Shown here piece by piece: positions 1,674 through 51,872 of a DNA stretch of 61,431 nucleotides; positions within the stretch are counted from its first letter, which is position 1; every line of letters begins with the position of its first letter. A model generated the notes under the pieces. It did no database searches and had not been told where the DNA came from. It was given only the letters and a program-made list of their open reading frames with translations. This DNA is from a virus, in IMG/VR virus record IMGVR_UViG_3300045988_127488; one strand, 5' to 3'. The position numbers and the translations under genes were made by a program.

Positions 1674-2051
1674 TTAGAAATCCATCTCCACACCGTTTTT
1701 CTTCGCCTCGTCCTTCACGCTCTGGGGGCTTTTCAGCTTTCTCGTATCTACGCCAAAAGTCTTGGCAAGATAGTTCTTAGCCTTGGTGATATTCTCGAAG
1801 TGAAGGGCATTCTCGTTCGTCACGTGCTCTTCTTCATGCTTCTGCACCTGCACCTCTTCGGGCTGACTCTCATCGATGATGCGCCCTGCTTTCGTTAGCG
1901 GATGCTTCCGGATGCAGTCTGCCACCTGCTTATTGTCCGTAAGATAGGAGTAAGCATTGTTGCTGCACCGTTCAAACTCCACACTCTTGATAAGTCCGCT
2001 GGGCAGAGTCACCACAAAGATGAGCATACTGTTTGCTACAAATCTATACAT
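1674..2051 (-). CDS. Hypothetical protein (hydrophobic N-terminus), head module
   Basis: 125-aa ORF with an ATG start, directly downstream of the capsid-protein candidate in the same operon. Confidence 0.5.
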   Translation of the reverse strand: MYRFVANSMLIFVVTLPSGLIKSVEFERCSNNAYSYLTDNKQVADCIRKHPLTKAGRIIDESQPEEVQVQKHEEEHVTNENALHFENITKAKNYLAKTFGVDTRKLKSPQSVKDEAKKNGVEMDF

Positions 2052-2153: not shown

Positions 2154-3722
2154 TTAAGCTGCCTCCTGAATCTGCTCATCGGTCACACCGTCTTCGGTGA
2201 AGGTTGGACGAGATACACGGGCATGGGCATCAGGGAATGTCAATACCCAGCAACTATACTCTTCCATCACCACACCTGCAGTGTTGCGAATCAGGAGATC
2301 CTTGGCGTTAAACTCGTTGCGTGACCAAGTACCGAATACATATTTGTCAAGATAACGAGAATCCAGACAGAAGGCTCTACCATCCATGCCCCAACTATTG
2401 AAGGCATCGTGACGATAGATGAGAATCTTTGTTCCCATGCTCTCAAACTTCTCGAAGTCAAGTTTCCATCCCTGGTAGTCCTTTTCGGTCTGTGTAATGA
2501 TACGCTTGTTAGAGCGGAGGTTAGCAAATGCCTGATAAATCAGGTTGTCTACGAAGAGCAACTTGGTACGGCTGGAGTTACCAGCACCCTTCAACATGGA
2601 TGCAATAAACTGGGTCAACTCCTTCTCGCTAATCACATACTCATATACCTGTTTCTTCTCAACCTTTGTACCGCTAGAACCATCAGGAACGGTCACATCG
2701 GCTGTTACAGGCACAAGAGTACCATCAGCCTGCTTACGCATCTTTGGCTCCCAGTGTCCAATCTGTAAATCCTTACCTGCTTCCCAGAAGATGCCACCCA
2801 TGGTATAGACAAGACCTACATCCTTGCCACCATTCGACATAGAGCGATAACCAAACAGTCCACTCAGCTCCTGACCTTGGCGCATATCGTCCATAGCCAT
2901 CTTCTCCTGACGTGTGAAGTCCCACTGCACCTGGGTCTTGCTCATACGGTCGATAAGAGACTCCTCCACCTGCATGATGAATCGCTGGCAATACTGGAAG
3001 CTCTTGTCTGGCATAGAGTAGTAGCTACCTGTCTCTACCTCTTTTTCACCAGCTGCTCGTCCAAGTCGCATTACGACCGTACCTACGGCAATATCATCAG
3101 GAAGGTCTCTGTTACCACGTGCGTTGTTTTTCTTTCCGTTCAGCGCATAACATGTAGGGTTTCCGTCATTGTCAACCTCAGTTACACGCAACTGCAAAGG
3201 AATCATTTCGCTTCGGTCAGTACCATTATCCTTAAAGCCCAGATAGCTGTTCACCATGATAATGTCGCCTACACCGAATACGGTAGGATTCTCTACCTTC
3301 AAGGTCACAGAGCCACCATTTGTGGTTTTAGTAACCTTTTCCGTCAATTTTGTTTTGATTGGTCGCTGACCGATGGAATAGTACTCGATGCGGTTACTGT
3401 CCACAGGAGTCATTCGCTTCGAGGCTCGAAGAATCTGGTCGATTGGGCAACTCTCCAGCTTCATTTCTACCACGGTAGGGTTCACATGAGCCACATAGTA
3501 GTCCCAGTTATTCATTTTCTCCTGCTGCTCCTGGCTTCCACCCTGCCACTTTGGACCTGTGCCACCTACGCCTGGACCATCCGTTGGACCTGTAGGGCCA
3601 CCGCCTCCTTCACCTGCAGGAATATTAGGAGGAGTTTCTGCCATAGCATAAGAGCTGCCACCACTCAGGATCATGACTACAATCGCCATCATGAATCCAA
3701 ACCATTTCTTAAACTGTTTCAT
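2154..3722 (-). CDS. Major capsid protein candidate with an atypical N-terminal signal/anchor and Gly/Pro-rich linker
   Basis: 522 aa, immediately after the scaffold-like gene. The call rests on size, position and general sequence character, with no diagnostic motif. The N-terminus MKQFKKWFGFMMAIVVMILSGGSSYAMA-E resembles a Sec signal peptide. Confidence 0.55.
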   Translation of the reverse strand: MKQFKKWFGFMMAIVVMILSGGSSYAMAETPPNIPAGEGGGGPTGPTDGPGVGGTGPKWQGGSQEQQEKMNNWDYYVAHVNPTVVEMKLESCPIDQILRASKRMTPVDSNRIEYYSIGQRPIKTKLTEKVTKTTNGGSVTLKVENPTVFGVGDIIMVNSYLGFKDNGTDRSEMIPLQLRVTEVDNDGNPTCYALNGKKNNARGNRDLPDDIAVGTVVMRLGRAAGEKEVETGSYYSMPDKSFQYCQRFIMQVEESLIDRMSKTQVQWDFTRQEKMAMDDMRQGQELSGLFGYRSMSNGGKDVGLVYTMGGIFWEAGKDLQIGHWEPKMRKQADGTLVPVTADVTVPDGSSGTKVEKKQVYEYVISEKELTQFIASMLKGAGNSSRTKLLFVDNLIYQAFANLRSNKRIITQTEKDYQGWKLDFEKFESMGTKILIYRHDAFNSWGMDGRAFCLDSRYLDKYVFGTWSRNEFNAKDLLIRNTAGVVMEEYSCWVLTFPDAHARVSRPTFTEDGVTDEQIQEAA

Positions 3723-3775: not shown

Positions 3776-4588
3776 TTACATGCCAACCATCTTGCTGTAC
3801 ACCTGTTCCGTCCGGCTCTTTTCCTTTGGAAGTGCAGGAGCACCACCGCCACCATTGATGTTGATGTTCTTCTTGCCACCCTGTTTTCCATCGTGAAGCT
3901 GCCTCTGCTGGTCTATTTTCTCGTTCTTGCCACGCTTATAGCCTCGCTCCTCGGCATCAGTAACAGCCTTGTCAAAGTCCTTGATCTGGAAGAGGCGCAA
4001 GAAGTCTGCCTTCTTCAAGTCATACCGGACAGCTCTCCATACGAATCCATCATCATCGTGGTCTTCGCCATCCTCGCTACGCTTGTACATCCATTCTATC
4101 AGGTCATTGATAGACTCAGGCTTAATCTTGGCTTCCTTCATGGCTTCATCAAGCTCCTTATCCTCTTGCTCCATGTTGGCTGCAAGTTTCTCCTTGCCCT
4201 TGGCTAGCTTCTCACTCGCATCGAGCTTTTCCTTCTCGCTAGCCTTCAAGCGTTTCCTTGCCTCCTCGTCACCATTGATAGCTTCGATGTAGTCCTGACC
4301 CAGCTCGTCTATCAGGTAGTCGATAAGGTTAAAGTCGCCACCATCAGCATTTTTCTTGGTCACAAGACCTGTTACCAACCCAGGAGCATGAGGATTTTCT
4401 TTCAGCATATTGTTGAAGTCGTCCATCTTTTTCTTGCTTTGGTCGTACTGGTCGTAATCGGTCGCAATTTGGTTAAAAACAGCCTCATCATCGTCCATAT
4501 TCAGGTCGGGATAACGCTGCGCAAAACTCTCTCTGAAAGAATCTCGCTTCGATTTAACATTCTGATTATCAATCGTTTCTTTTGCCAT
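3776..4588 (-). CDS. Scaffolding protein candidate
   Basis: 270 aa, highly charged (K/E/D-rich) with coiled-coil-like character. It is the first gene of the operon and precedes the capsid candidate. Confidence 0.5.
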   Translation of the reverse strand: MAKETIDNQNVKSKRDSFRESFAQRYPDLNMDDDEAVFNQIATDYDQYDQSKKKMDDFNNMLKENPHAPGLVTGLVTKKNADGGDFNLIDYLIDELGQDYIEAINGDEEARKRLKASEKEKLDASEKLAKGKEKLAANMEQEDKELDEAMKEAKIKPESINDLIEWMYKRSEDGEDHDDDGFVWRAVRYDLKKADFLRLFQIKDFDKAVTDAEERGYKRGKNEKIDQQRQLHDGKQGGKKNININGGGGAPALPKEKSRTEQVYSKMVGM

Positions 4589-4662: not shown

Positions 4663-4681
4663 GACGAATTAATTTTGTTGC

Positions 4682-5116
4682 ATGAAACATCTAAATTCCA
4701 TATCCGAAATTTACCTTAAAAGAGACCAGGAAATGTTTCTGCTCTTTCGTAAGGCCAAGAGGATGGTAGAATATCCTACCACCATGGCTAAGATATGCGA
4801 TTACATCGCCCAGATGCCTGCCTCTTGTTATTATCTGGCTGATAGCACTGCCTATCGGTATATATGCAAACGCATTAAGGGCGAAAAACCAAAATTCGGA
4901 AAATACCAAGCCATGAAGGAAAAACTCTTCGAAGCCTTCTATCAGGACTTCCTGCGCCTCCGGCAGATGGATCAATACAAGAAATACAATACCAAGAATC
5001 TTGTGTATGTGTGCCTGGATCTCCCTGCGCCCAACCTGGGCATGGCTCCTCGCTACATACAGATGAAAATCAACCATCATTTCCGCAACAAGAAAACGTC
5101 ATTCATAACTCGATAA
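4682..5116 (+). CDS. Hypothetical protein, first gene of the terminase operon (small terminase possible by position only)
   Basis: 144-aa ORF. A TAATTTTG -7 box at 4670..4677 ends only about 4 nt before the ATG. No recognisable motif. Confidence 0.45.
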   Translation: MKHLNSISEIYLKRDQEMFLLFRKAKRMVEYPTTMAKICDYIAQMPASCYYLADSTAYRYICKRIKGEKPKFGKYQAMKEKLFEAFYQDFLRLRQMDQYKKYNTKNLVYVCLDLPAPNLGMAPRYIQMKINHHFRNKKTSFITR

Positions 5117-5128
5117 ATCTCTTCTATT

Positions 5129-5608
5129 ATGCGTACATTATATATTACACTCCTCATAATCCTCCTGATGGCGTTCATCATTCCGCTTCATGCCAACATG
5201 GCTGTATCGCCATCAACCCCAATATACTCCCATTTCGTTTACATGTTCGGTCATGCCAACTTCATCCATTGGTCTGTCAACGCCTGGTGCTTGTTGATGG
5301 TGCATCGTCAGTTCCGCTTCCATCGTCTATTGGCTTCGTGGCTGGCATCCGTGGCTCTCTCCTTCCTCTATTATCCGTCCCTCCCGGTCTTGGGTGCATC
5401 GGTCATCATATCCTTCTTCATGGGCTTCACTGCTCCCTGGCTCTACCATAGAAAGCGCCTAGCCTTCTTCCAGATGCTCATTCTCCTGGTAATAGGTTGC
5501 CTCCTCCCTCATATAGCTGGCATCTACCACCTCATCCTCTTCGCCCTAGGCTTCATCTATGCCAAGGCAGAAGGATTCATTCACAAGTCTCAAAAACTCA
5601 ACATTTAA
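5129..5608 (+). CDS. Rhomboid-family intramembrane serine protease-like protein (compact, about 6 TM)
   Basis: FGHANFIHWSVNAW matches the rhomboid HxxxxHxxxN motif. LGASVIISFFMG matches the GxSx catalytic-Ser helix. HIAGIYHLILFALG supplies a His-bearing last helix. I count six hydrophobic segments. Confidence 0.6.
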   Translation: MRTLYITLLIILLMAFIIPLHANMAVSPSTPIYSHFVYMFGHANFIHWSVNAWCLLMVHRQFRFHRLLASWLASVALSFLYYPSLPVLGASVIISFFMGFTAPWLYHRKRLAFFQMLILLVIGCLLPHIAGIYHLILFALGFIYAKAEGFIHKSQKLNI

Positions 5609-5637: not shown

Positions 5638-7827
5638 ATGCCAGTAGCAAAGTCTTCATTAAAGGTACGACCTCAGCAGCAGATTTCCGATAAGAAGCTC
5701 AAAGAGATTCTTGCCGAAAATACGAGGAGATTGGAAAGTCTCCTCGCAAGCTATCGTCCCATTACTGGAGAGAATGCACCTGGTCTTCGATTCGAGTGTG
5801 TCATTGAGGATTTCTTGAAGGGCAAGAAACTTTGGCTTCCGGTAGAAATGTTGAAGGAAAAGAAGTTTTGCGCCATCATCAAGTGCGGTTCTATCTCTGC
5901 CTTCTGCGAGAAGTACATGGCAGACCTGGATCAAGAAAAGGCACGCGATGCAGTATTCCGCTATCTCATCCGTCTTCGCTGCAAGCACGATTTTTATTTC
6001 TTCGCCTACGCCTATGCCAGAATCAAGAACAAGGATGGTGGCGATGATATACCTTTCCTTCTCAACCATGCACAGATAGGTCTCACCAAGGATTTCGAAC
6101 GGCAACGCCTTCATGGTGAGCTGCACAGTATCTTGATTATCCTCTTGAAGTGTCGCCAATGGGGTGGTTCTACTGATACCGAGGTTTACATGTTCTGGAT
6201 TCAGATGTTCTGGAAGACCAACTGGAATAGCAACATCATCGGCCACCAGTCTTCATCTGCTACCCAGGTGTTCGATATGTACGAGAAATTGGCGAATGCC
6301 ATCCCTACATGGCTCTACTATGAGATTGGAGAGACATTCAAGGAAGACTCTCGCAAACTCCGCACATCAAGCACTCAGAACAACATCAAGTACCTCATCC
6401 CTCGCTCCTGCAAGATACAGACTGGTTCGGCTCGCAACCCTGAGTCCTGCCGTTCTGCCGATGCAGCCATGGCTCACATCACCGAGGAAGCCTTTTTCCC
6501 TAACACTACAGAGTGGACTCCACAGAAGGTTGTCAATGCCGCAATCTCGCCTATCAATGTTACGAGACCTTACACCTTCATCGTGCGAGAGTCCACCCCT
6601 AATGGGCGTGAAAATGAGTTTCATGATGAATGGGTGCGTGCCAACTCTTTCGACAAGGACGGCAATCGCCTTTCCATCTATACCCCTTACTTCGTTCCAT
6701 GGTTCGACATCGAGAAGTATATCCTTCCTTTCAAGTCTGAGCAAGAAAAGATAGATTTCGTTCTTTGGCTCTACAAGAATCGTGAGGATGAGCAATATCA
6801 TGGCTCTTACTTCTGGTGGCTTTGGGAAATCAAGGGGGCAACCCTCGAAGGCATCCATTGGTATGTGAATGAGTGCAAGAAGTATAGCGACTTGGATGGC
6901 ATGCGTCAGGAATACCCTTCCGATGATGTGGAAGCCTTCCTCTTCTCCGGCACAACAGTCTTCGACCCTTACAAGTTGAAGGAAATGGAAGAGGACTGCA
7001 AGGGCATTGAGCCTATCATGGTGGGCGACATCGAAGGTGATTCCTACGATGCTGCCGATGATGCTTGCATGAACAATATCCGCTTCGTGGAGCGTTCCGG
7101 TGGACCTCTTAAGGTTTGGGCTGGACCCGATAACTCCGAGATTGTCAAGCACCGTTATGTTGTGGCATGTGATATTGGTGGCTCTCATAAGACCTCCGAC
7201 TTCTCCGACATCGTAGTGCTCGACCGCTACGATGAAATCTACGGTGGCGTTCCCGAACTGGTAGCCGAATGGCATGGTCACTGCGATGCCGATCAGTTAG
7301 CTATGCGCTGTGCCCAGATAGCCCATTTCTATAATGATGCTTATCTGGTCATAGAGAACAATACCGCTTACTCTCGCATGAACAATACCGAGGGCAATCA
7401 GTCAGAGCTGTTCTTCCCTATCCTCCTCCCTCTCTACGACAACCTGTATAGTGCCTCCCAGTCCAAGTTGAAGAAGGTGAAGAATATCGAAATGAAATGG
7501 GGATTCAACACCAACAAGAACACAAAGGTAGCAGTAGTGAAGACGATGGCAAGAATCATCCGTGATGGTGGCTATATGGAGCGAGAACTTGCAGCCATAG
7601 ATGAATGCACCTACTTCCTCTATTACAAGCAGAACGACTGCTATGGTGCCATAGCCGGAAAGCACGATGACCGAGTGATGGCAAGAGCCATCGCCCTCTA
7701 TGTAGAAAAGGACATGCCAGCCCCGGAAATCATCCCATTCCGCTCCAAGTCCGACATAGAGCGAGAACGCCTCCGCAACCGCCCTCCAGTAGTAGCCGAG
7801 TTAGCCGGAATAGGTGGCAGCAAATAG
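5638..7827 (+). CDS. terL: Terminase large subunit
   Basis: 729 aa. LLKCRQWGGST resembles the terminase ATPase P-loop variant. VVACDIGGSHKTSDFSDIVVLD and GKHDDRVMARAIAL resemble RNaseH-like nuclease acidic motifs. Confidence 0.8.
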   Translation: MPVAKSSLKVRPQQQISDKKLKEILAENTRRLESLLASYRPITGENAPGLRFECVIEDFLKGKKLWLPVEMLKEKKFCAIIKCGSISAFCEKYMADLDQEKARDAVFRYLIRLRCKHDFYFFAYAYARIKNKDGGDDIPFLLNHAQIGLTKDFERQRLHGELHSILIILLKCRQWGGSTDTEVYMFWIQMFWKTNWNSNIIGHQSSSATQVFDMYEKLANAIPTWLYYEIGETFKEDSRKLRTSSTQNNIKYLIPRSCKIQTGSARNPESCRSADAAMAHITEEAFFPNTTEWTPQKVVNAAISPINVTRPYTFIVRESTPNGRENEFHDEWVRANSFDKDGNRLSIYTPYFVPWFDIEKYILPFKSEQEKIDFVLWLYKNREDEQYHGSYFWWLWEIKGATLEGIHWYVNECKKYSDLDGMRQEYPSDDVEAFLFSGTTVFDPYKLKEMEEDCKGIEPIMVGDIEGDSYDAADDACMNNIRFVERSGGPLKVWAGPDNSEIVKHRYVVACDIGGSHKTSDFSDIVVLDRYDEIYGGVPELVAEWHGHCDADQLAMRCAQIAHFYNDAYLVIENNTAYSRMNNTEGNQSELFFPILLPLYDNLYSASQSKLKKVKNIEMKWGFNTNKNTKVAVVKTMARIIRDGGYMERELAAIDECTYFLYYKQNDCYGAIAGKHDDRVMARAIALYVEKDMPAPEIIPFRSKSDIERERLRNRPPVVAELAGIGGSK

Positions 7828-7923: not shown

Positions 7924-8391
7924 ATGAAAAAAGTTTATCAAAATCATCTTCGCAAGATGCTGATAGCCATCTACCAGCCAGTAATCACTCGTATCGAGCT
8001 TTTCCGCTCAACCCGAATGTGGAAGAAAGGCGTAAAAGCCACCCTAGCCAAGTACCAGGAAGGAGGCGCTCCACGCTTCTACCTGCTCTACGACCAGTCC
8101 CACAAGGATTGGGCTATCATGACCTATGACCCCAACCGCAAGCAGCTCCTTGCCTACCGTCGCCTAGTCCAGCTTGGCAAGTGGAAGGCAACACGCTACT
8201 TCAAGAACGTGGAAGACATCAAGGCAGCCTCCTACTACTACACCCCTTCCAAGTGGGGAGCAATCGGCTGCGATGCCGACAACAAGGTCAGAGCAAAGAA
8301 ATTGAAGCAATGGCAAGAGTATTACATGTATCGTGTTTCCGTCCAGATGGAAAAGCTACGCTCCTACAAGAAGAAACATGGAATCTCTTAA
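7924..8391 (+). CDS. Hypothetical basic protein
   Basis: 155-aa ORF with an ATG start, the last gene of the terminase operon. Confidence 0.5.
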   Translation: MKKVYQNHLRKMLIAIYQPVITRIELFRSTRMWKKGVKATLAKYQEGGAPRFYLLYDQSHKDWAIMTYDPNRKQLLAYRRLVQLGKWKATRYFKNVEDIKAASYYYTPSKWGAIGCDADNKVRAKKLKQWQEYYMYRVSVQMEKLRSYKKKHGIS

Positions 8392-8393
8392 GC

Positions 8394-8448
8394 CCACACA
8401 AAAAAAGGAAGAGAAAGCCATCACGGTTTCCTCTTCCTCAACCTTTTT
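8394..8448. terminator. Bidirectional intrinsic terminator between convergent genes
   Basis: The stem aggaagag(aaa)/(ttt)c-ctcttcct (8406-8438) is flanked by an A-run upstream and a T-run (8444-8448) downstream. Confidence 0.65.
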
Positions 8449-8496
8449 ACCTTTAAACTAAAAAACTTAAAGTCTATATATACAACGTTATAATTT

Positions 8497-10560
8497 TTAT
8501 GTAGCTGTAGATGCCGATGGCAAAGCAGCCAAGTCATTTGTACCGCTGTTTCCATCTTTCAGATGTGCTGCTGGCGTACCAGTCTGCTGTTGCCCTGCTC
8601 CGGCTGTAGGCATTTCGCCATTTGCTTGCTGCTGCGCTTGCATAGCTTCAAGCTTCTCCAACTGCTCCTTGAAGTACTTCTTCATTCTGTTCGTACCAGG
8701 GAATTGTCCTACGGTCAGCATCGTATATGGGTCCATCTTACCGCTTGTCATGAAGTTCCAAGCCATATCGTTGTTGGTGGCTCTGATGATTGGGCTGTAA
8801 GCATCCAGGTCGATGGCTACGTCCAGATCCATATCCCTCATGGTCTCCGGGTTGAAATGTATCTCGAAGTCATCCCCGGTCAGTTTCACGCTGTCCGCTG
8901 CGGTGCAGAACTCCTGAATCAGGTACAGCTTCTTCTTGGCGATTCTCACCTTGTAGTTATTGAAACTCTCCACAAAGTCCTGAATGGTGGTGGATGATGC
9001 CTCTCTCTCCAGCTGATACTGCTTTCCGCTGGTGTTGCGATGCTGTCCCTGCAGAGCACCCTGCACGCCTGTACCCTCTCCTGCCATAGTCTTGGCAAAA
9101 TTCACCATGAAGTCAACTCCTGCCGGAATACTCTTGTTGACCAAAGTCTGCGGTGGCTTACCTCCATTCTTGGAGTTCCACAAGATAATGCTATCAGTTT
9201 TGGTATAGTTCACCTGCATTTCATCAATGCTCTGTTTCTCGCTCAGAGCATTCTCGTCCACAAGCATCGTACCCTTGGCACCATTGGCCACGATGAAGTT
9301 AATCATCATCATATAATGGTTCAAGGTGCGCTGATTGTTCTCGGCACGCATAGTGAAACTTCTTACCTCGCCATTCAAACAAGGATATGCCACGAAGGTA
9401 TATGGCATGATGGAAGTCCTGAAACCGTCTCTCAGCACATAGTAGGGCGATTCCCTCGCATCCAGCAGATAGCCATTCGGTGTAAGGTATCTTCTGAACC
9501 AATACGTTTCAGCCTCAGCCTTCATTTCGATGGTTTTCAACTCCGATGGGTCCACATAATAGATAGGCTCACCGTTCTCATCGAGCACTGGCAGACCGTT
9601 CTCGTCCTTCATGATGTTGGCTTCCTCCAGCTTCCGCTTCTTCTCCTCGTAGAAGGCTCGTTGGTCGGGAGAGGCATAGCCACATGTCCCGGCATCCCAG
9701 TCATGCACCCAGATGGCTGGTCGGGTCTCTTTCGTCCATATCTCCAATACCCTGTACTTGCCGATTACCGAAGAATGAGTGAAATCGTCTATTCCGGCAT
9801 ACTGCGCTTCACCGTTGGGGTGATAAGTCTGCTCAGGAGCGAAATGATGCTGCGTCTGTAGATAGATCTCACTGAGTTTATTAGCCTCTTCCTTGCTTCC
9901 ATTTGTAAAGGTAGCAATAATCTCTCGCCAAGTCAAATCATGAGCCTCAGCAATAAATTCCACATCGCTCAGGTCATACTTAAAGAAAGGTGGTAAAGCT
10001 AACTTAAAGATGTCTACAGAATAGTCAAAGATGCCATTCTTGCCATCCCTTCTGCCATAATAGGTTTTCATGCCCACAAAGGCGAAGATACAGAAGGCAT
10101 AGAACATTCTCGCATCTAACTCTTGCCTGTCGTTCAAGTTGTCGTTCTGACGAAGATATTCATTGAAGAAACTGATATAGTCTTCCTCGTTGGGGTCTAC
10201 GGCACTGCAAGAGGCTGTACTGCGTTGCTGGCGCACAAGTCCTACGAGAGAAAGCAGCTTGTCGCCTATCACGTCATATTCCAGGATAGGCATACCCTTC
10301 ATTTCCATATACTGACGGATGCTTATCTTCCTACCGTTCCATTCTATCAGCTCTTCCAGCTGTCTGCCCATCACGAAGTCCTGCGCTCGCTTCCACTTCT
10401 TTCTCAGCTCTGCGCCATCATAGAAGTATTGGCAAGCCCATTCTATCAGCCGAAGGTTGCTGTCTGTCTGGGCAAACCGCTCCCGGCTCACTCCTTCAAG
10501 TGAGTCTGGTCCAGGCTCTGCATAGTTCGATATGTCATTTATTACATGATTGTCAACCAT
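8497..10560 (-). CDS. Portal protein candidate
   Basis: About 687 aa from the ATG at 10560 (the track start at 10569 is a TTG). It is convergent with the terminase operon and has its own late-type promoter. Size and position fit a portal. Confidence 0.6.
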   Translation of the reverse strand: MVDNHVINDISNYAEPGPDSLEGVSRERFAQTDSNLRLIEWACQYFYDGAELRKKWKRAQDFVMGRQLEELIEWNGRKISIRQYMEMKGMPILEYDVIGDKLLSLVGLVRQQRSTASCSAVDPNEEDYISFFNEYLRQNDNLNDRQELDARMFYAFCIFAFVGMKTYYGRRDGKNGIFDYSVDIFKLALPPFFKYDLSDVEFIAEAHDLTWREIIATFTNGSKEEANKLSEIYLQTQHHFAPEQTYHPNGEAQYAGIDDFTHSSVIGKYRVLEIWTKETRPAIWVHDWDAGTCGYASPDQRAFYEEKKRKLEEANIMKDENGLPVLDENGEPIYYVDPSELKTIEMKAEAETYWFRRYLTPNGYLLDARESPYYVLRDGFRTSIMPYTFVAYPCLNGEVRSFTMRAENNQRTLNHYMMMINFIVANGAKGTMLVDENALSEKQSIDEMQVNYTKTDSIILWNSKNGGKPPQTLVNKSIPAGVDFMVNFAKTMAGEGTGVQGALQGQHRNTSGKQYQLEREASSTTIQDFVESFNNYKVRIAKKKLYLIQEFCTAADSVKLTGDDFEIHFNPETMRDMDLDVAIDLDAYSPIIRATNNDMAWNFMTSGKMDPYTMLTVGQFPGTNRMKKYFKEQLEKLEAMQAQQQANGEMPTAGAGQQQTGTPAAHLKDGNSGTNDLAALPSASTAT

Positions 10561-10577
10561 AATTCTCAATTTTTCGC

Positions 10578-11338: not shown

Positions 11339-14300
11339 CTACTCCATTCCGTTCAACGTTTTAAGCAGCTCCTTTCTGGTCTTTCTGATCTCCACCATTT
11401 TGGCAGCCCCATTCGTACCATCCATTTGCTTCTTTGCCTTATTCATCTTCTTCTTGGCAGCAGAGATAGCCTTTCTAGCCGCAAACAGTCGCTTGTTGGT
11501 CTTGCTGTTCTTGAAGGCATTAGCCTTCGCCTTATCAATATCCTTCAAGCGCTGATACTCCTGATAAGCCTCCATGGTTCCGTTCCAGGCGTTCTGTATT
11601 CTCCAGTCCTCCGTCACGTCCTCAGCCTTGGCCGCCATCAGATACTTGCTTTCAGCCTTCTCCATTTCCTTCAAGTCTTCATCACCGTTCAGATAACCCT
11701 GCACCATGTCCAGAGCCTCCTTCTGGGTGAAAGCCTTGTAATCACTCTGCGAGAGGAATTTCTTCATCTTCTGGCGCATCTTCTTCTTCTCCGTGATACT
11801 CTTGGCAGCATCAAAGCGTTTAATAGCCTCCTGTAAGGAAGTTACTCCATCGCTCATTTCTGCACTCTCCAGTGCCTTCACGCTTCCGATGGCAGCCTTA
11901 ATCTGAGCCTCAGCATCAATACCGTTGCGTTGGCAGCTCTGGTAGGTCATTGCTATACCCTCCATGTCACCGCTAAGGATAAAATCCTTGAAATAACTCT
12001 GAGCCTTCCATGGAGAGAAACCCTTAGAAGAAGGGAAGAAGAAATCCACGGCCTTGAACTCCTTGTTCTCCTGGCTCGGAATCAGGAAAGGTGCCCAGTA
12101 CAAAGCATCCTTGTAAAGCAGTCCGATGGTCTTGCCATACTTGCGCTGAATCTCTTGATCCGCATGGCTGGCTTGGAAATCGCTCAGATAGTTTATATCA
12201 TCCAAGGTCATTCTCACCATAGGGTTAGCCTTACCTATCATTCGCTGTACCATAGGTCCAGGGAACTCTAGTTCTCCCTTATGGTTGAAGAGATATTCAG
12301 GAACCTCACGGAACTGCTTACCATGTCTCACATACATTTCTGTACCATCTTCATATCTGCCAAGGAAAATCTTGCTTTGCTGACCAAGGCTGTTGCCTCG
12401 CATCAGATAGTCATACCAATTCATACCATCAGGATAAGCAAGTTCATACATGCTCTTATAGCTTGGGTTGGTCTTTCTGATCTCCTCAGCCTTTTTGCGC
12501 TCCTTCTCCTCGTCCAAGGCACGGAAAGCAGCATTGATGCCATTGGCAATACCCTCATAGAACACCATGAATCCGATACCATAACAGAGTAAAGCAGAAA
12601 TCTGTCTGCTCCTTCTGCCCTCATCCTCCGGTGTAAGAATCCCATGGCCAAGTCGCTTGTAGTAATGCTTGAAGTTCTCAAAGGTTGCCTCATTCCAGAT
12701 AGAGCCATATCCGGTTAATGCCAGGAAGTGGCGTGTAGTAGAAGCATTCCAGTCTGGCGAAAGAAGAACTCGTCCGGCATAGCGCAAGGTTCGATGGCTG
12801 GCACCCAGGATGTCCCAGTGCTGACCGCCAAACATATCGTTCACAAACTGACCGTCCTCGTCCAAAGCCCGGCTCAGTTCCTCCTCAGTCCATCCCTTCT
12901 TCTTGGCACGTTCCTTGGTCTTGTCTGCCCTCATCCGGTAGGTCGCAAGTTTCAGTCCGTCATGGAGGAAATCCCACAAGGCTCTATCCATGCCCTTGTT
13001 GATGAGCGAAAGCATCTGCGTTGCCACCTTCAATGGCATAGTAGCCAAAGCCACCGTTCCGGAAATTTTATTTCCGTCCTTCAACTTCTCCTGCACCTTT
13101 ATCATCGCATCGCGCATATTGTCAAACATGTTCTGAACATCTGCTGCTGCATAGTCGTTGGTCGCTCCAAACTTCACCAGGTGGGTAGCAGCCTCTTGGA
13201 AGTCCTCAGGATTGGCAAAGCAAGGCAGCTCATGGTTCTTCATCGTATCTACAAAGATATACTTCATAAAGTTGGCCATAGCCTTCTTCGGACCAAATTC
13301 CACCATGTTCTGTACCATATAAACCTCCGTCAATGCTCCGGCATGGAAACCGCTAAAGCCCAACTCCAGTTTCTTAGCACTCGAAGCAAGCGTATCAAAC
13401 GCCTTCCAGAAAGGAGAAGACTGATAGCTCTCGAATACTACACCGAATCGGTCTCCGGCACTCGCCTCGCTATAAAGCACCCTCTCCTTGCCAGTGATAG
13501 GATTCTTCACCTTCATCTGCCTAGGCGATACATTATATACCCATACAGGGCCTACGCCCGGAATCTCGAAGTACTTATATTGCTCCAGGTTAAAAGGAGG
13601 CGTAGAAGAAAGCAGTGCGTCAGAAGAAACGATTTCTCCGTCCTCATTCCGCTCTATCACGTTCAATCCGCTCAACTCCTGCAGCATGGTTTTGTTAACC
13701 CAAGCCTCGATATTGCTTCTGCTGTAGTAAGCCATCATCTTCGTAATGTCGGTAGTCTTAGGCACAAGTCCTACGCTGATACCCTCCATCAGGGTACTGA
13801 TGGTTCTCGGCTTCTCGTTAGGGCTTTTTGTGCGCTGCCTATTCTCCACAAAGGTAGCATACGCCTCAGGATCAGATTTCTCTTTATCCCAGATATGGTT
13901 TACATAGTCGGCATTATATCCGGTGTCCTCTCTTAAGGTATGATTATCCTTCAACCAGTCGTAGGTATAGTTATACCAGTCTCTGATAGAATCAATGGCA
14001 GCCTTCATTTCAGGCGAGAGATTCTTGTAGTCGATACCCACAGGCACAATCTGCTGCTTCACCAGTGGCAATACATGTTCGCTAAGAATGTCCGTTCCGT
14101 CAATAGGAACAAAACCTTCCTCGCCCTGATGATTGGCATTGATCACCTGCGCCATCTTGCTGGCCACCTCGCTCACAGCCTGCGGATCATCATATACCTC
14201 CACCTCCTTGCCATCTTTCAGCTCGGTATGCTTCTTGCCAGTCTCAGCAATCAGATCTGCCACGTATGGCTGGATAGCCTCAACATCAGCCGGCTGGATA

Positions 14301-17300
14301 TGGATATGCCCCTTATCAAAAGCGCCAGTGGCATTCAGATCGTGCGCCAGGTCACGCAAACGTCTTGGAGCCTCTATTATATAAGGTATAGCCTCAGCCA
14401 GCTTTTCTGCTCGGTTCGGCTTGCCCTTGTAATCAGAAAGTAACTTGTCAAAAGCACCGCTGTCTGCCATCTTCTCTATTCTGTTCTTCACATCATTGAT
14501 ATAGATGGCATCATCTGCACTCGCCTCCTCCATGTTCTTTCTACGATGGATAACGGCATGCTTCACGGTCTTGGCAGCACCCTCCTTGCTCACGTCCGTA
14601 CTGGTCACCTCAGCCAAGTCCTGCATCACCTGCTGCTCCAGGTCATCAGCCTTCGGATTGGTCTCTGCCGGATAAATCTTACCCTCATACAAGTCCAAAT
14701 CTGCTTGCTGCTGCTCCAGAAGCTCATGTCTGGACAACCAGTCCTCATACTTGCGTTTCACCTCCTCCTGCTTTTTCTTTTCGTAGGCAAACATATCAGG
14801 CATAGGGTCTTCCTGGTCCTTCATGGCTTCCTTCCATTTCTCATATTCGTGAATACGAGTCATGTAGGCACCATCCTCTTCACCTTCCATACGGATAGGC
14901 ATCCCCATAGGTTCCTCGCCTGCAAGATGGTGTCGCTCACGCCAGTCCTTATTGAGCTGTGCCCATTCCTTCTTGCCTGCTTCATCCTTGTCGATGTCGT
15001 AGAACATAGGTGGTTCTGGGTCCTCCTTATCCTCACGTGCATTCTTCCATTTGCGCCATTCCTGTACACGTTTCATATACTGAATGGTGCTTTCACCCTT
15101 CTTCTGGCGAGGCTTGCCATTCTTGGCTCCCTCACCCAGCGAGTCCTTGATTTCAGCATTGCTAGCCTGCTTCATCATGGCTTCCTGCTTCTCCTTAGGC
15201 ATATTGTCCCAAACGTGCAAAGCCTTGCCAGCCTTCATCAGGTAGTATCTCAAATCCTTGTCATTCAGAAGTCCCGGCACACGAATACCCAGTTTCTTCA
15301 AAAATCGGATAAGGTAATGCTTAATCTTAGTCCAAAGAGTAAAGTCCTCAGCAGTCTTAGGACCCTCCTCAGCCAAATGAGCGATATACTCCTGCGTTCC
15401 CACATTCATGCGATCAGGGTTCTTCCAGTCCGGATCATACTCATTTGCAATCTCCAGAATCTTGCCGCGAGTGCTTGCTGCGACAGAATTATAAACGAAA
15501 TTAGCGAATTTTCTCACCTCATCTTCGCCACCCAGCAGCACTTCCATACCCTCATGGCCTATCTTCTCATGAAGCACCGTTCTCTCCGCCTCGCTCGCAT
15601 CAGCACAGTTAGGCAGATAAACATGCACCGTATGAGTCTCCGGATCATACCATCCGGTAGCCCCATTCTTCACTTCACTCAGATAAGCATCCGGAACCTC
15701 ATCCACAGAAGTGTAAACCGTAGCCTCAGCACCACCCAGTTTGTTGGCAGTGTTCACCACCTGGTCACTCACCTTCTTCTGCTTATCAGCATCCCAGTCA
15801 TTCTTGAAGATAGATTTTCCAAGTCGTGCCAGCACATTTCTGCCCGATAAGTCATCCTTATTCAGCAGAGGAGCAATCACACCCTGGGTCAACTGCACCG
15901 GAATACCATTGCCAATGATGGTATGTGCCAAAGATTCCGTCTTAGGCAGCAGATAGTCATCACCAAGTCCGGTAATTCTCGCCAGCACCCTGCCATCAGC
16001 ACGCAACACCTTTCCACCCGGCATGATGATCACGTCACCACTCTTGGTTCTCAGCGTTGGCAGAATCTCATCCCCATAGGCATGAGGAATCTTTCCGTCT
16101 GCATAGGCACTGCCCATCACGTAAAGAGGCTTCTCCACCTTCTGCCAGTCGATTCCGTCAGCCTTCAATCTAGCATCCATCCATGGAGCCACACCGCTTT
16201 CTTTCACCGTCAGAGTAGGAAGAATATCCTCCACAGCCTCTAGCCATCCACCCTTGCGTGGTTGCTTTTTAGGCTTCTCCGGCAGTTCTCCGTCCTTCAC
16301 GGCTCTCACTATCAGTCGCTCCCTGCTGGTATAGCCACCATAGTCTGCGGCATTATACACGTCAGCATCCCATGTGTAGCCGTTCTTATCCAGTGCCTGG
16401 GTGATAATCTTCATCGCCTCAGAGTCCTTGTAGCCCTTCACGTTCTCGATAGTCACCACTCGCGGTTTCACGGCATCAATGAAGTCGGCAGTACTCTTGG
16501 CAGTCTCCTTGTCAAGTTCCACCTCTCCACTATTACTTTTGGCCTGCGAATAGTTCTTGCATACAGGCGAAGCATGGAAATACTCAACCTCACCATCTAT
16601 ATGCTTCACCAGTTCCTTTGGATCCACGTCTCTCACGTCAGCCGTAACAATATGCTGCCCGAAGTTATTGCGATATACACCGCTTATCTTCCGGTCATAT
16701 TCCACGGCCACTACGGGGTCAATAATGCCCTTCAATCCCTCTTCTACCAGTCCACCACCGCTAAAGTAGGTACCAGCCTTCATCAGCGAATCAGGGTGCT
16801 TCTTCAACTTCTGCTCCACGATAGGCGATTGCGCATTTTTACCGTACACCTTAGAATAATGCACACCATCATTCTCGCCTCCTACAATTCTTCCTCTGTT
16901 ATCGGTCTCCACAAACGGCACACCTCGCTTCTCCAACTCTTTTCTCAGACTTGGAGTAACCACATTAGAAGGCATAGTGATATTCTTGCCCTTGAACATA
17001 TCATTAACAATAACATCAGCCACCTCGCTGTCAGGCACAATACGCACAGGCTTATCCCAACGAGAAAGTACCACCTTGCGCTTGCCTGTCAGCTGTCCTT
17101 GGATGATACCAGCCTTCCACTCTACTTCGCCCACGGCATCCTTGGCTTTATCAGCCTTGTAGCCACTGGTCAGCTCGCTCTTTGGCACCTCAACCTCTAC
17201 AGTTACGATGTTAGGGCGATTCTGAGCCTCGCTAAACTGGTCATTCAGTGGAGTGCGAGAAGTATGAAGGTAAGGATTGTAAGCAGCCTTAAGCGACTTA

Positions 17301-20300
17301 CCATTACCCTTGTTGAGGGTAAACATACCCTTATCATCAGCAAGCTCTGGTCGCTCGTCTGCCTGTTCCCACTTACCGAGTTCGATAGGTTGCACAAACT
17401 TGCCCTTCACCTTTGCAGCCATCGGTGGATAGAGTTTTCCATCCTCGCCTACCTGCATGGCACGATAAACCTTCACCGTGTCTTCCTTATCCAGCTTCTT
17501 GATGGTCTCAGGGTCTTTCACAATGCTATAGCTAGCATCATTCCCATTCATCACGATCTGCTCGTCTCGGTTCACGTCCTCAGTCTCCTCAGCCAATGAG
17601 TTTCTGCGCTCCTCATCAGTCATACCCAAACGCTTCTCCACATTTCTCGATTCTACCTCACCTGCCAACTTTAGGTATTCTTTGTAAGAATCAAAGTCAG
17701 AGCGTGTACTTTCATTCAGGCGAAAACGTTTGATGGCATCATCCATACTTCTATCAGCATAGCCACGTGCAAAGTAATTGAACCCCTTGATACGTGTTTC
17801 TTTATCAGGAAGTTCATCAGACATATCCAAATCCTTATATTCCTCAACAAGGGCTTTTTCTACCTCCGATTGATTATACTCACCTCCCAATTCCTTGGCC
17901 TTTTCTTCCAATTCATGAGCATAAGCACGTGCCTTCCACTCGTCTTGCGCTTCCTTAAATTCTTTTTCCATTTGTTCAGGTGATCCACCTTTTCCAAAGC
18001 CCTCTATATACTGGATAGCATGCTGAATCTCGTGATTCAAAATACTATTCATATATTTCAGCTCATCAGCATGAATGGTAATGGTGTTGGTCTTGGCATT
18101 ATAATTACCATTTGAAGGCATATCGTTCATAATGGCATCCGTATCAATACGCACATCCTTCAACTGAGGATAAGCCTCAAAGAGTCCAGGCGCATCAATG
18201 ACATTAGTAAGTTTACCATCATTCCAAAGCATATCGTCATCAAAACGCTTAACAATATTACCACCGCCAATATCCTTCATATCCTTAATCTTAGCATCCG
18301 GCATTTCATATCTCCACTTGCCATCTACACCTTTCTCCCAACCTGTAGCCATCTTGATAATCTTGGCATTCTTTTTTGACACTTCCATTTGCTTAGCCAC
18401 ATCCAGGTTATCCATGCGGATAGTTTGCTCCTCAGCCTTATCAGCCTCAGCAGCTCCCTTCTCTCCAGCAAACATGAATCTCACATCGCTCTTGCGAGAA
18501 TTGAAACGCTTAGAAGGAGGAATAACGTCACCCTTATCATCATAGGTAACAAGGTCGTTCAACTTTCTGTTGTTCTTGGCATTCTTATATTTATATGCCT
18601 TGCCATCATCAAAGCCAAACTCGTTTGCGTCATTACCGTCCCACCACAGTTGAGTAGCCGGAACTTCATCTTCAATGATACGATATTTGCCTTCCAGACG
18701 GTTTGTTCCGTGCATTTCGGCATATTTCTTTGAAGGAGTAACCCAGTCACCATTACGCAACTTGCCTTCCTTCACAGAAGTAGGAACAGCACGATAAACC
18801 TTTACCTTAACATCCTTCTCGCCATTCTTAATAGCATCAATAGCTGCATTGATGGCTTTCACAGATTCCAATCCATGAGGAGTGTTCTGAGAATAACGCT
18901 CAGGATGGGAGAAGTAATCATCCGGCTGAGGAGCATAGCCCAAGGCAATATCCTCCAGGTTCACATCCGAGCCACTGGATTCCCAATCGTCACGTCTCGC
19001 CTTGTCGCTTTCATACCCAGGGTTTCCCGGTGCAGCCCATGCACCTACACCTTGGTATGCGCTTTCGGTATCATCATAGCCCTTGCGTCTGGCAGCCTCA
19101 TCAAGCATTTCCCTGGCTGTAGCATCATCACCTTTGGCAAGAGCATCCATATACTGCTTGTCAAGTTGATCATCAGGAATCACAGAAAGTTCCTCCAGGT
19201 GCTTTTGGCGCTTGGCTTCCTCTTCCTCTGCTCTCTTTCTAGCGGCTTCCATGGCGTTACGCTGCGCCTCCACCTGCTTCACGCGCTCCTCGATCATAGC
19301 ATCAAGGTCGCCAAAGTTCTCCTTCAAGGCATTATTTACAGGCACGGTGTACTTAAGAAGTTCCTTTAAAGAGGAAATCTTATCTTCATTTGCCTGCAAC
19401 AAATGGCGTTTGATATTGGCTCTGGCACGTGCAGCCTCAGCTGTAGAACCCTTCTTAATAGCATTGGCATACATCGCCACATCTGCCTCATCTACACCAA
19501 ATTGCTGAGATACAGCCATTATTTTATCCTCCACAGATAAATTTCCACCATTTCCCTTGGCGGTTTCGATATTATTTCTTATCTTTGCATCGCTATGAGG
19601 ATTCAGGACGCTATCCTTTCCGCTTGGGTTATTTGCGGATGGAGTTAATGCCGAACCTTGATTCTCGCCCAAGGAATTAGAATCGCCTCTGAAACGATTC
19701 CATAGCACTTTTGATTCCGTCAATTCTTTCAAAACTTTCGAAGGATCTATTTGATGTGCGCTAATCGCCACTTCCTCTTCACCCTGCTTTACTGTTATGG
19801 ATTCATAGTTCAGAATCTTGTTTCCATCAGCCTTTTTAAAGGATTTGATGAACAGATATTTAGTCTGTCGTTCCGCACCCTCTTTTGGTGCAGACTTCTC
19901 CAGGATAACATCAGGACGCTCCAGGGTAGGCTTCAACAAACCAAATCTTTTGATTCGGTCGTTTCTTCCAGCCTTCTTATATTGGTTTTCACCAAGTTTG
20001 ATACTTCCAATAGGAGTAGTAACACGGCTATCCTTGCCAAATTCTTTCAGCCAGTTTTCTTCCGTATGCTCTAGAATCCGTTCTTGCTCAGCATTATCTG
20101 CCATCTGTTTACGAAGAGAAACTGCATCTTCCTTAGTCATACGAGACTTCACGTTGCGTGGGTCCACCCCATTCGCCAAGTCTCTCAACACAAGATTACG
20201 AATATCCTCCAAGGTCATTTTCTTAATGTCCTCAGGCTTCCACTTCGTAAATGTATCAAGAGTCCAATACCAGAATTTCTTCAGCCACTCCTTCAACTTA

Positions 20301-30929: not shown

Positions 30930-32396
30930 CTATTTTATGTCCCTGACTCGTTCAAAGTACTTCGTCTGGTCCTTGGTGATATTCTTCACCTTGATTTGTA
31001 TCGTACAGTTCTTAGGCACAGTATCATTTATGCTGGCCATGAGCTGTTCTATTATCTCATCTGTATTCTTGTAGCCCTTGCCATCCACATGAGCCACAAC
31101 CTCGCCCATGAAGTAGCCATCAGCAGATAACTCAAATGTTTCTTCCACCTTATCGAATACAGGCACATGATGTTCCTCCAGGCGTTTACTCTTGTCATTA
31201 GTGAAAAATATCTTCTCCACTACCTTCTCATTTAATTCCCATGCTCTAGAGAAATCAGGTTTCACATAGCCCATGGTAATCTTGTGGGTACTTATATGGT
31301 TCATAGCAAAGCCTATCTCTTCATAATTGGCACCAACATCATTTTGGGCTATTGTAGCCCAGGTATGGCGAAAAGTATAAGGTGTTATCTTCAAATCAAC
31401 ATCCTTCAAGGTGTTGATACAGAATTTCTTCAGGAACAGACACAAATTACCATCCATCGACCTGCTACATCCATAGCTTTTATGGAAATTAAACAGATAT
31501 GGGTCTTCTTTATCTGAAAGATACTTAGTCATCGTAGGTATGAGCATATCAGGTACTTTCATTTCTATATAGGCTTCATCAGCTCTAACCGTCCGTGTCT
31601 TTTGTCGCTTATAATGCAAAATACCATCATAATAATCAACCTTTTTCATTTCATACAGGTCAGCCACATTAATTCCAGCAAGACACAATACCATCTTGCA
31701 CACATCCACAGCCAAACATTCGGTCTTAGAAGAAGGAATTACTGAAAAAATCCTTCTGCAATCTTCCATCAAGATAGCACGCTTTTTGGGAATAGCATGC
31801 TTATGATACTCAACTTTAGTCCAAGGATTCACCTTTATCCTTACGATGTCGTTATCATAATCATTATATTTAGCCACACCTGCCTTGAACATTTTTTTTA
31901 GAAACTGAGGATAATAAGATTTCTTTGCCTTGGAATCCTTCATACTATCTATCCAGCCTTGCACAAGTTTGGTGTTCAATTCACTAAACATCACTTTCTT
32001 TGAACCACAATATTTTTCTATACTATTCAAGGTATTGTGATAATTTACGAGAGACTGAGGCTTCAATGTTTCAGACAATTCACCAATGTATTCTCTAGCG
32101 AAGTCAGAAAAACACACATCTGCATCATTTTGCTCCAGATAGTCCCTAACCTGTTCAGCACTCCAAGAACGGATGTCTAGCTTATTTAGCTTGAACATCC
32201 ATTCTTCAATAGTTTGGTTCAGCGAATTTAGCACAAAGGAATCCCTCACATCATGAGAACCTTTCACGATGCCCTTCTGCCCCACCATCTTGCTCGTCTT
32301 GATATAAAGCGATCTACGATTGTGAGTCATTCGGATATACACTTGGTAAAAGCCATCAGATCTCTGATGTTGAACAACAATTTTAAATGTAGCCAT
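30930..32396 (-). CDS. int: Tyrosine recombinase / phage integrase
   Basis: 488 aa. An N-terminal arm-binding-like beta region (MATFKIVVQHQRSDGFYQVYIRM) precedes a catalytic region with TPYTFRHTWATIA and NHISTHKITMGYVKP (R...H-x-x-R...H...Y pattern). Confidence 0.85.
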   Translation of the reverse strand: MATFKIVVQHQRSDGFYQVYIRMTHNRRSLYIKTSKMVGQKGIVKGSHDVRDSFVLNSLNQTIEEWMFKLNKLDIRSWSAEQVRDYLEQNDADVCFSDFAREYIGELSETLKPQSLVNYHNTLNSIEKYCGSKKVMFSELNTKLVQGWIDSMKDSKAKKSYYPQFLKKMFKAGVAKYNDYDNDIVRIKVNPWTKVEYHKHAIPKKRAILMEDCRRIFSVIPSSKTECLAVDVCKMVLCLAGINVADLYEMKKVDYYDGILHYKRQKTRTVRADEAYIEMKVPDMLIPTMTKYLSDKEDPYLFNFHKSYGCSRSMDGNLCLFLKKFCINTLKDVDLKITPYTFRHTWATIAQNDVGANYEEIGFAMNHISTHKITMGYVKPDFSRAWELNEKVVEKIFFTNDKSKRLEEHHVPVFDKVEETFELSADGYFMGEVVAHVDGKGYKNTDEIIEQLMASINDTVPKNCTIQIKVKNITKDQTKYFERVRDIK

Positions 32397-51869: not shown

Positions 51870-51872
51870 AAG

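Follow-up and report, generated by a model that had tools for sequence, protein, structure and literature searches.

Introduction

Rhomboids are ubiquitous, and very few of the bacterial ones have a known substrate or role. Among them, GlpG of Escherichia coli (276 amino acids, aa) and of Haemophilus influenzae (192 aa), which belongs to MEROPS S54 and PF01694, is the reference to which the protein described here can be compared most directly. Small rhomboid-fold proteins are also encoded by viruses. Indeed, rhomboids from other phages and from giant viruses are present in UniProt, as is the case for a phage 'rhombosortase', and an accessory region of the Stenotrophomonas phages DLP3 and DLP5 encodes a 175-aa 'rhomboid membrane protein'. 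The literature searched yielded no study that addressed the function of a phage rhomboid. Here we analyse a 61,431-nucleotide stretch of viral DNA (IMG/VR virus record IMGVR_UViG_3300045988_127488, called the window throughout) and the gene at its positions 5129..5608 (+), which an initial annotation had read as a rhomboid-type intramembrane serine protease encoded inside the terminase operon. Our analysis confirms the observation and supports the rhomboid interpretation. With GlpG the encoded protein shares the six-helix core and the motifs of transmembrane (TM) helices TM2, TM4 and TM6, in register, while at 159 aa it is shorter, has no cytoplasmic domain and is phage-encoded in a packaging operon. 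Unlike the rhomboids of DLP3/DLP5 and the giant viruses and the phage 'rhombosortase', which are found in accessory regions or belong to other subfamilies and have neither a conserved linkage to the large terminase gene terL nor a known capsid link, it holds a fixed place beside terL.

Rhomboid identity in this phage lineage is already known at the level of annotation and is not new. The cultured temperate relatives BS-TP4, BKO1-TP3 and BF1-TP2 (64-68 kb), found via the large terminase (TerL) and a distant member of the protein family, include two with such a label: gp59 of BF1-TP2 is annotated 'rhomboid family intramembrane serine protease' and gp8 of BS-TP4 'rhomboid domain-containing protein', and BKO1-TP3 has a homologous stretch without rhomboid annotation. 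UniProt furthermore holds 'GlpG-like protein' entries of 155-160 aa from gut Podoviridae assemblies. The annotated rhomboids of the lineage, from BF1-TP2, BS-TP4, gut Podoviridae and Bacteroides/Duncaniella metagenome-assembled genomes, are 155-172 aa long and have the same place and the same catalytic motifs, but they are only ~20-30% identical to the window protein. The Prevotella-associated subfamily to which the latter belongs is labelled 'hypothetical protein' in source annotations and is not recognised by Pfam. It is hence a divergent, unrecognised branch, and its function and conserved operon position have been undiscussed so far. The paper on the cultured Bacteroides phages leaves the rhomboid unmentioned and contains neither virion proteomics nor a capsid structure; it reports one of these phages in 31% of healthy-donor viromes (PMC12694917). 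In IMG/VR, the capsid protein of the lineage is encoded by at least 547 viral contigs.

Results and discussion

The 159-aa protein and its link to the rhomboid family

The open reading frame (ORF) consists of 159 codons from ATG to stop and spans 5129..5608 (+) exactly. Hydropathy and AlphaFold models agree on six membrane helices with a kinked TM2, where the initial annotation had counted about six hydrophobic ones, and the three rhomboid elements that it had listed in order are all present in the translation, with FGHANFIHWSVNAW at residues 40-53, LGASVIISFFMG at residues 88-99 and IAGIYHLILFALG at residues 129-141.

The family to which this minimal six-helix protein belongs was defined by an exhaustive profile search, which gave 331 clusters at E<=1e-3, nearly all of 143-209 aa. 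In an alignment of 135 family representatives, with identities down to ~20%, H47, N51, G89 and S91 are invariant (135/135) and H134, H42, G99 and G141 are retained in 134, 133, 132 and 128 representatives respectively. Scanned singly, 126 of the 135 match PF01694 Rhomboid (best E 7.6e-17), and many relatives carry a precomputed PF01694 domain or the NCBI name 'rhomboid family intramembrane serine protease'. Alignment of the family profile to E. coli GlpG (glpG from NC_000913) with hhalign gave a probability of 94.4% and an E-value of 9e-8, and a second family profile produced an identical register. In this register, the TM2 motif H42-x4-H47-x3-N51 (5252..5281, +) falls on H145/H150/N154 of GlpG, in the oxyanion-hole region. 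The TM4 motif G89-A-S91-V-I-I-S95-F-F-M-G99 (5393..5425, +) is aligned to G199-L-S201-G-V-V-Y205-A-L-M-G209, with G89, S91, S95 and G99 opposite G199, S201, Y205 and G209, and the TM6 motif H134-x6-G141 (5528..5551, +) is aligned to H254 and G261. S91 is accordingly placed as the predicted nucleophile and H134 as the predicted general base. H128, which stands in a 'PHIAG' context like the 'AHIAG' of GlpG, was also considered as the catalytic histidine and ruled out, because this position is G, N, H or S across the family while H134 is near-invariant and aligned to H254.

Structure models point in the same direction. Template-free AlphaFold2 reached a pLDDT (predicted local distance difference test) of 75.5 with a shallow alignment and of 91.2, with a pTM (predicted TM-score) of 0.86, with a deeper and more diverse one. 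All top 30 PDB matches of the latter model in Foldseek belong to the rhomboid superfamily (GlpG of H. influenzae and E. coli, iRhom1/2), with probabilities of ~1.0 and TM-scores up to 0.71, while the next unrelated folds are at ~0.2. The best PDB matches of the shallow model are likewise exclusively of the rhomboid superfamily. For GlpG specifically the TM-score is 0.60-0.71 at an identity of only ~13-17%, and the best match among viral structures is a 'GlpG-like protein' of a gut podovirus (TM-score 0.77, E 1e-6). In the model of pLDDT 91.2, residues 91 and 131 are the first of TM4 and TM6, respectively, so that S91 and H134 would lie near the outer ends of their helices, as S201 and H254 do in GlpG.

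Several results weigh against the rhomboid assignment. The 159-aa protein alone has no match to PF01694, even at E<=1, and nothing meaningful in Pfam, PHROG or PDB sequences. A narrow profile of 28 close relatives found no match in NCBIfam, PDB or GlpG, and none of these 28 members matched the NCBIfam rhomboid and rhombosortase models at E<=10, the rhombosortase check being the NCBIfam model (TIGR03902) only, with GlyGly-CTERM partners not searched for. The link of the window protein to PF01694 is therefore transitive, through the wider family, and not direct. In addition, the Foldseek E-values against PDB are only 0.011-0.18, and several textbook features are altered: GxSG is replaced by G-A-S-V, the equivalent of Y205 is Ser in the window subfamily (Phe or Tyr in most others), and the WR motif of loop L1 is not kept, W136-R137 being aligned to Y33-S34. 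At the fourth GxSx position, 55 of the 135 representatives have Gly and 43 have Val, and at L1 the family has Y/W at position 33 and H/R at position 35. The L1-loop WR motif is common, not universal, among rhomboids. The AHxxGxxxG of TM6 is only partly kept, with Leu at the position of GlpG G257 and G141 retained, the L1 loop has ~10-12 residues and the L5 cap about five.

The missing direct matches and the Foldseek E-values above 0.01 are what would be expected if the protein were a generic small hydrophobic one with chance motifs and a fold that AlphaFold had memorised. We regard this as hardly credible, and it is already contradicted by the PF01694 matches of 126 of the 135 representatives, by the GlpG profile alignment with eight functional positions in register, by the invariant motif residues and by fold matches that are exclusively rhomboid. 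Given the modest Foldseek E-values, the case is carried by the sequence link, the eight-residue register and these exclusive fold matches together. The initial annotation had proposed profile and structure comparisons as checks: the protein alone has no profile match, the wider family matches both PF01694 and GlpG, the AlphaFold2 model matches rhomboid folds only, and the reading stands. We consider membership of the rhomboid family to be nearly certain.

Close relatives of the protein were also surveyed. There are 78 homologues with 52-93% identity, mostly on contigs of ~60-63 kb, and none of the 78 has a precomputed Pfam domain. Against GenBank phages, neither the whole operon (blastn) nor the 159-aa protein (tblastn) gave a match. 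Weak KASH and glycogenin matches of the protein were judged spurious. In other frames, ORFs of 40-146 aa overlap the rhomboid gene or the ORF upstream of it (5011..5451 (+), 5277..5449 (-) and 4691..5080 (-)); they have no homologues, are unneeded by synteny and look like by-products of the coding frame.

Activity and orientation

Over 66 alleles the rhomboid gene has a ratio of nonsynonymous to synonymous polymorphism (pN/pS) of 0.28, which corresponds to purifying selection, and the catalytic set is intact in 65 of them. Together with the strict conservation of this set in the wider family, the ratio favours an active enzyme over a pseudoprotease of the derlin or iRhom type. A non-catalytic protein of that kind would thin the membrane, or chaperone or dislocate an embedded partner, without cutting it. 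Such a function would suit the presence of iRhom among the top folds and of Derlin-1, the best non-protease fold lower in the list, at rank 35 (E 8.1, probability 0.16, TM-score 0.48), as well as the loss in this subfamily of the GxSG glycine and of the aromatic residue equivalent to Y205. However, the known pseudoproteases iRhom and Derlin have lost the catalytic Ser and/or His, whereas the Ser, the His, the TM2 His pair and the Asn are all invariant or nearly so in the 135 clusters. A non-catalytic role is thus very unlikely, and the 159-aa protein is, judging from its residues, probably an active protease.

The Arg and Lys residues of the protein are confined to its N-terminus, its C-terminal tail and the loops TM2-3 and TM4-5. 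According to the positive-inside rule this placement predicts a GlpG-like N-in/C-in orientation with the active site toward the periplasm. The rhomboid would then be situated in the host inner membrane with both termini cytoplasmic, and its S91-H134 dyad and H47/N51 oxyanion region would open to the periplasmic leaflet, like those of GlpG.

A conserved place beside terL

The gene lies between two ORFs of the same strand. Upstream, a conserved 144-aa ORF (4682..5116, +) ends 12 nt before it and matches PHROG 27246 (E 5.5e-8), a family without assigned function; every locus examined has an orthologue in this place. Downstream, the 729-aa TerL gene (5638..7827, +) starts 29 nt after it. The placement of the rhomboid just upstream of terL in the initial annotation was correct, since TerL matches PHROG 24361 terminase (E 2e-10) and, by tblastn, many annotated TerL proteins; it is 40% identical to its orthologues in the Bacteroides phages BS-TP4, BKO1-TP3 and BF1-TP2. 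The possible small terminase of that annotation is unproven: the sole argument for the 144-aa ORF is its position upstream of terL, with no match in Pfam and nothing meaningful in a PDB profile search.

The operon is flanked by head genes on the opposite strand. The major capsid protein (MCP; 522 aa, SU10/HK97 type) is encoded at 2154..3722 (-) and the P22-type portal protein at 8497..10569 (-). The matches to PF17236 SU10_MCP (E 1.1e-14) and PF16510 (E 1.1e-31) come from a bulk scan of the window and were assigned to these two genes via precomputed hits on orthologues. Between the MCP and the operon, and divergent from the latter, a 270-aa acidic protein (3776..4588, -) is inferred from position and composition to be scaffold-like, and its ORF keeps this place in all loci compared.

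The synteny survey that the initial annotation had suggested shows that the place next to terL is kept across the lineage. Without exception, MCP and scaffold genes on one strand are followed by the ORF of ~140-148 aa, the rhomboid and a TerL of ~695-729 aa on the other, and these by the P22-type portal. This order is the same whether the rhomboid is 72% identical to the window protein (P0056), ~25-29% identical (P0227, P0257, P0277, P0273) or, in the most distant loci sampled, ~20% identical (P0201, P0133, P0165). Across relatives the rhomboid ORF often overlaps both neighbours. It is found in 94 of 97 loci, a count that includes the window and the unrelated control L013, and the loci with an MCP and without a rhomboid are L089, which is truncated, and L043, a mosaic contig. 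In the four loci that are long enough (L002, L007, L009, L096), the portal is followed by a polyvalent protein of 5,600-7,200 aa.

L043 (IMGVR_UViG_3300045988_088346, 75.6 kb) has only 2.1 kb in common with the window, at its positions 8001..10127. The shared stretch consists of the MCP from about codon 6 and of the next gene, with unrelated flanks on both sides, so this contig is either an assembly chimera or the product of a recombination that brought in the capsid gene alone. L043 and L089 were for these reasons rejected as negative controls, as was MW202692, the nearest phage outside the lineage, which is too distant and differently organised.

Transcription signals were examined as well. 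A Bacteroidetes-type -7 box, TAATTTTG, is located at 4670..4677 (+), just upstream of the 144-aa ORF; it is a weak match to the consensus, and up to the end of terL this strand has no other -7 box. No convincing terminator was found between 4682 and 7827. One transcript may thus cover the 144-aa ORF, the rhomboid and terL, as these faint signals hint. In the whole window there are 60 occurrences of the consensus TAnnTTTG, where 41.7 ± 6.9 were expected, and only 1 of 100 shuffles reached 60. Many of them immediately precede an ORF start, as at 4670, 10652 and 34611, which is consistent with a Bacteroidales host. On this arrangement the rhomboid would probably be co-transcribed, and often translationally coupled, with the ~144-aa ORF and terL, and it would be made late, alongside the head and packaging proteins.

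The fixed position of the gene bears on the idea that the rhomboid is directed at the host and cleaves its inner-membrane proteins for superinfection block, anti-defence or host remodelling. Bacterial rhomboids offer precedents for such targets, in the activation of TatA by a rhomboid (PMC3712462) and in orphan-subunit quality control (PMC7232013). The small rhomboids of DLP3/DLP5 sit in an accessory region, and the window phage is probably temperate, with an integrase. On the other hand, accessory genes and morons tend to vary and to come with signals of their own, whereas this rhomboid is a fixed core gene that overlaps its neighbours and is retained down to ~20% identity. The real morons of the module (Fic, helix-turn-helix (HTH) and toxin-like genes) are inserted elsewhere, never within the unit formed by the 144-aa ORF, the rhomboid and terL. 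Furthermore, with no internal promoter-like box in the operon, expression of the rhomboid from a prophage is unlikely. We therefore hold a host-directed protease to be improbable. In L096, an HTH regulator, a Fic-domain protein and a DUF4160/DUF2442 pair are found at 12231..14821 between the terL operon and the portal, with the unit intact.

A signal-peptide-like pre-sequence on the capsid protein

By inspection, the MCP starts with MKQFKKWFGFMMAIVVMILSGGSSYAMA|ETPP, that is, with a basic N-terminus, a hydrophobic helix and a small-x-small motif, which are the basic n-region, hydrophobic h-region and c-region of a Sec-type signal peptide or signal anchor. This signal-peptide-like pre-sequence or TM anchor, MKQFKKWFGFMMAIVVMILSGGSSYAMA|E, occupies codons 1-28 (3639..3722, -) and is the candidate substrate considered below. 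In the window it is followed by a Gly/Pro-rich linker of ~45 aa, to ~3513, and then by the conserved capsid fold. The same architecture was seen in every MCP inspected, namely in 11 diverse relatives and in each of the 93 MCP-containing loci; in L002, L007, L009, L011, L012, L094, L096, L098, L100 and L101 the start is accompanied by an acidic Gly-rich linker of 35-50 aa. A motif G-x-[VI]-M-M-A-x-A is conserved and reads AMA|E in the window. Over 76 unique sequences, codons 1-26 have a pN/pS of 0.12 at a pS of 0.29.

Since a conserved Met follows the hydrophobic start, an ORF-calling artefact or an untranslated leader was considered; both were rejected because of stops upstream in all relatives, the persistence of the architecture at ~30% identity and the pN/pS of 0.12. 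The pre-sequence is translated and under selection, which is a new observation of this analysis, and an additional internal start after it may be used. In the literature searched, no other tailed phage was found to have an MCP with a pre-sequence of this kind.

Within the head and packaging module, a predicted TM segment conserved in the lineage is found in no protein other than the MCP and the rhomboid. The ORF 1674..2051 has an N-terminal hydrophobic stretch in the window only, its orthologues being without it. Moreover, the two lineages with G-A-S instead of G-[LI]-S in the rhomboid are the same two whose MCP motif departs from [VI]MMAxA; as two events only, these paired departures are suggestive at most.

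Proposed role of the rhomboid

The explanation that we favour on balance, with restrained confidence, is that of an active minimal rhomboid, encoded by a core late gene, that cleaves a membrane-embedded late protein. The leading candidate for this substrate would be the N-terminal anchor of the MCP, and the rhomboid would either set the MCP free of the membrane or dispose of the anchor peptide that is left behind. That the rhomboid and the pre-sequence of the MCP are functionally linked, counting both cleavage and remnant clearance, is itself a tentative proposal. More doubtful is the specific form in which the MCP would be a membrane-tethered precursor processed by the phage rhomboid in place of a prohead protease, with assembly tied to the inner membrane and possibly also to the Sec translocon. 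As a speculation, a translocon-arrested MCP hairpin could be released by the cleavage.

A number of points speak against the link to the MCP. The positive-inside rule gives an MCP anchor that is N-in, type II or signal-peptide-like, whereas canonical rhomboid substrates are N-out (PMC2941825). The AxA motif of the MCP would fit host signal peptidase I equally well, and a capsid protein must stay in, or return to, the cytoplasm. The co-occurrence of rhomboid and pre-sequence is seen within one lineage only and lacks the negative control that a rhomboid-less sister group would provide; both features may be no more than traits that this lineage shares. As regards topology, one type II substrate (Star) is noted in PMC2941825, and so is a loop-back model for substrates in which the motif and the TM helix are set apart by a flexible stretch; the long linker of the MCP could in principle permit cleavage of this type.

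The initial annotation had also recognised no classical prohead protease in the genome. Our Pfam scan agrees, as no S78/U35, ClpP, S49 or S77 family member was found among 57 window ORFs, the 5710-aa ORF not being scanned, and none of the 16 families that these ORFs matched is one of proteases, and no head maturation protease annotation is present among the best 25 of the 56 PHROG families of the window. Many podophages, P22-like and T7-like ones among them, simply have no head protease. This absence is therefore not evidence by itself for a replacement of the prohead protease.

A substrate with the canonical orientation could instead be sought among the lysis proteins. The rhomboid would then act as a regulator of lysis timing that cleaves a u-spanin-like protein, a holin or an antiholin and so tunes or triggers lysis late. 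The window does carry a probable lysis cassette at 51441..52878 (-), recognised by inspection, with a u-spanin-like ORF (51441..51869, -; lipobox FLTSC, C-terminal TM segment and basic tail), a further ORF (51873..52409, -) and a holin-like ORF with 2-3 TM segments (52390..52878, -), and endolysin and amidase families are present. Once processed, the u-spanin-like lipoprotein would be N-out/C-in, as in canonical rhomboid substrates (rule from PMC2941825), and late co-expression with the packaging genes would suit a lysis clock. Nevertheless, the cassette is ~46 kb away from a rhomboid gene that is rigidly tied to terL and the head genes throughout the lineage, and cleavage of the spanin anchor would be expected to inactivate the spanin. 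In addition, nearly all phages of Gram-negative hosts have spanins and holins without having a rhomboid, so there is no specific association with lysis proteins. A role in lysis timing is accordingly an unlikely one, and the MCP anchor is retained as the leading candidate substrate.

Lineage and genome context

Besides the genes described above, the window encodes an integrase, an amidase endolysin and DNA methyltransferases, and one of its close relatives is named 'uncultured Prevotella sp.', which points to a temperate Bacteroidales phage. The rhomboid belongs to the core genes of a large group of temperate Bacteroidales (Prevotella/Bacteroides) podophages of ~60-70 kb. In the bulk scan one window ORF, which the scan did not name, matches integrase families, and a 488-aa ORF (30930..32396, -) adjoins small HTH genes. 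Close relatives are also present on contigs of 120-270 kb (L003, 266 kb; L005, 237 kb). Together with the integrase, these contig sizes suggest a temperate phage that is present in free form and also as a prophage or a concatemeric assembly. No tRNA genes were found in the window.

The 5710-aa ORF (11339..28471, -) makes up 28% of the genome. Its orthologues of 5,600-7,200 aa contain the polyvalent-protein domains InPase, PBECR1/3/5, LPD3/13/23/38, ddrB-ParB, helicase, ART-PolyVal and MuF_C, and the protein is presumably an injected multi-domain anti-defence or takeover protein.

Some existing labels in the lineage look like misannotations. TerL orthologues are labelled 'tail spike protein' in L011 (7034..9061; PQ571263 gp60), L012 (7001..9097; PQ571277 gp7) and PQ571269, and in the same records of BF1-TP2, BS-TP4 and BKO1-TP3 the MCP is labelled 'DUF5309' or 'DUF2951'.

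Comparison with known systems

The puzzle raised by this locus is that an abundant phage lineage of the human gut has a minimal rhomboid among its fixed core genes, wired into the terminase operon, together with a capsid protein that bears a signal-peptide-like anchor. The cultured Bacteroides isolates make the system accessible to genetics, and the candidate substrates are very few. If the link to the MCP is true, capsid assembly would be controlled in a new way and intramembrane proteolysis would have a new biological role; if it is false, the capsid pre-sequence remains an unexplained oddity that is worth study in itself. With 143-209 aa, the window family is moreover among the smallest rhomboid cores and may be useful for defining the minimal catalytic unit.

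Among rhomboids with a described substrate, AarA of Providencia stuartii is a bacterial-type enzyme that trims a short N-terminal, membrane-proximal peptide from TatA (PMC2941825). The proposed trimming of the MCP would resemble this reaction in removing a short N-terminal peptide. The two substrates differ in that TatA is N-out, whereas the pre-sequence of the MCP has a predicted N-in orientation and precedes a large domain of cytoplasmic type.

Classical prohead proteases (gp4 of HK97, S78/U35; the ClpP-like S14 enzymes; C of lambda, S49; gp21 of T4, S77) are soluble, are packaged into the procapsid and have unrelated folds. The window rhomboid is by contrast an integral membrane enzyme by prediction, but like them it is encoded in the head and packaging module and, should the link to the MCP hold, it would do the same job, the removal of an N-terminal pro-segment from the capsid protein.

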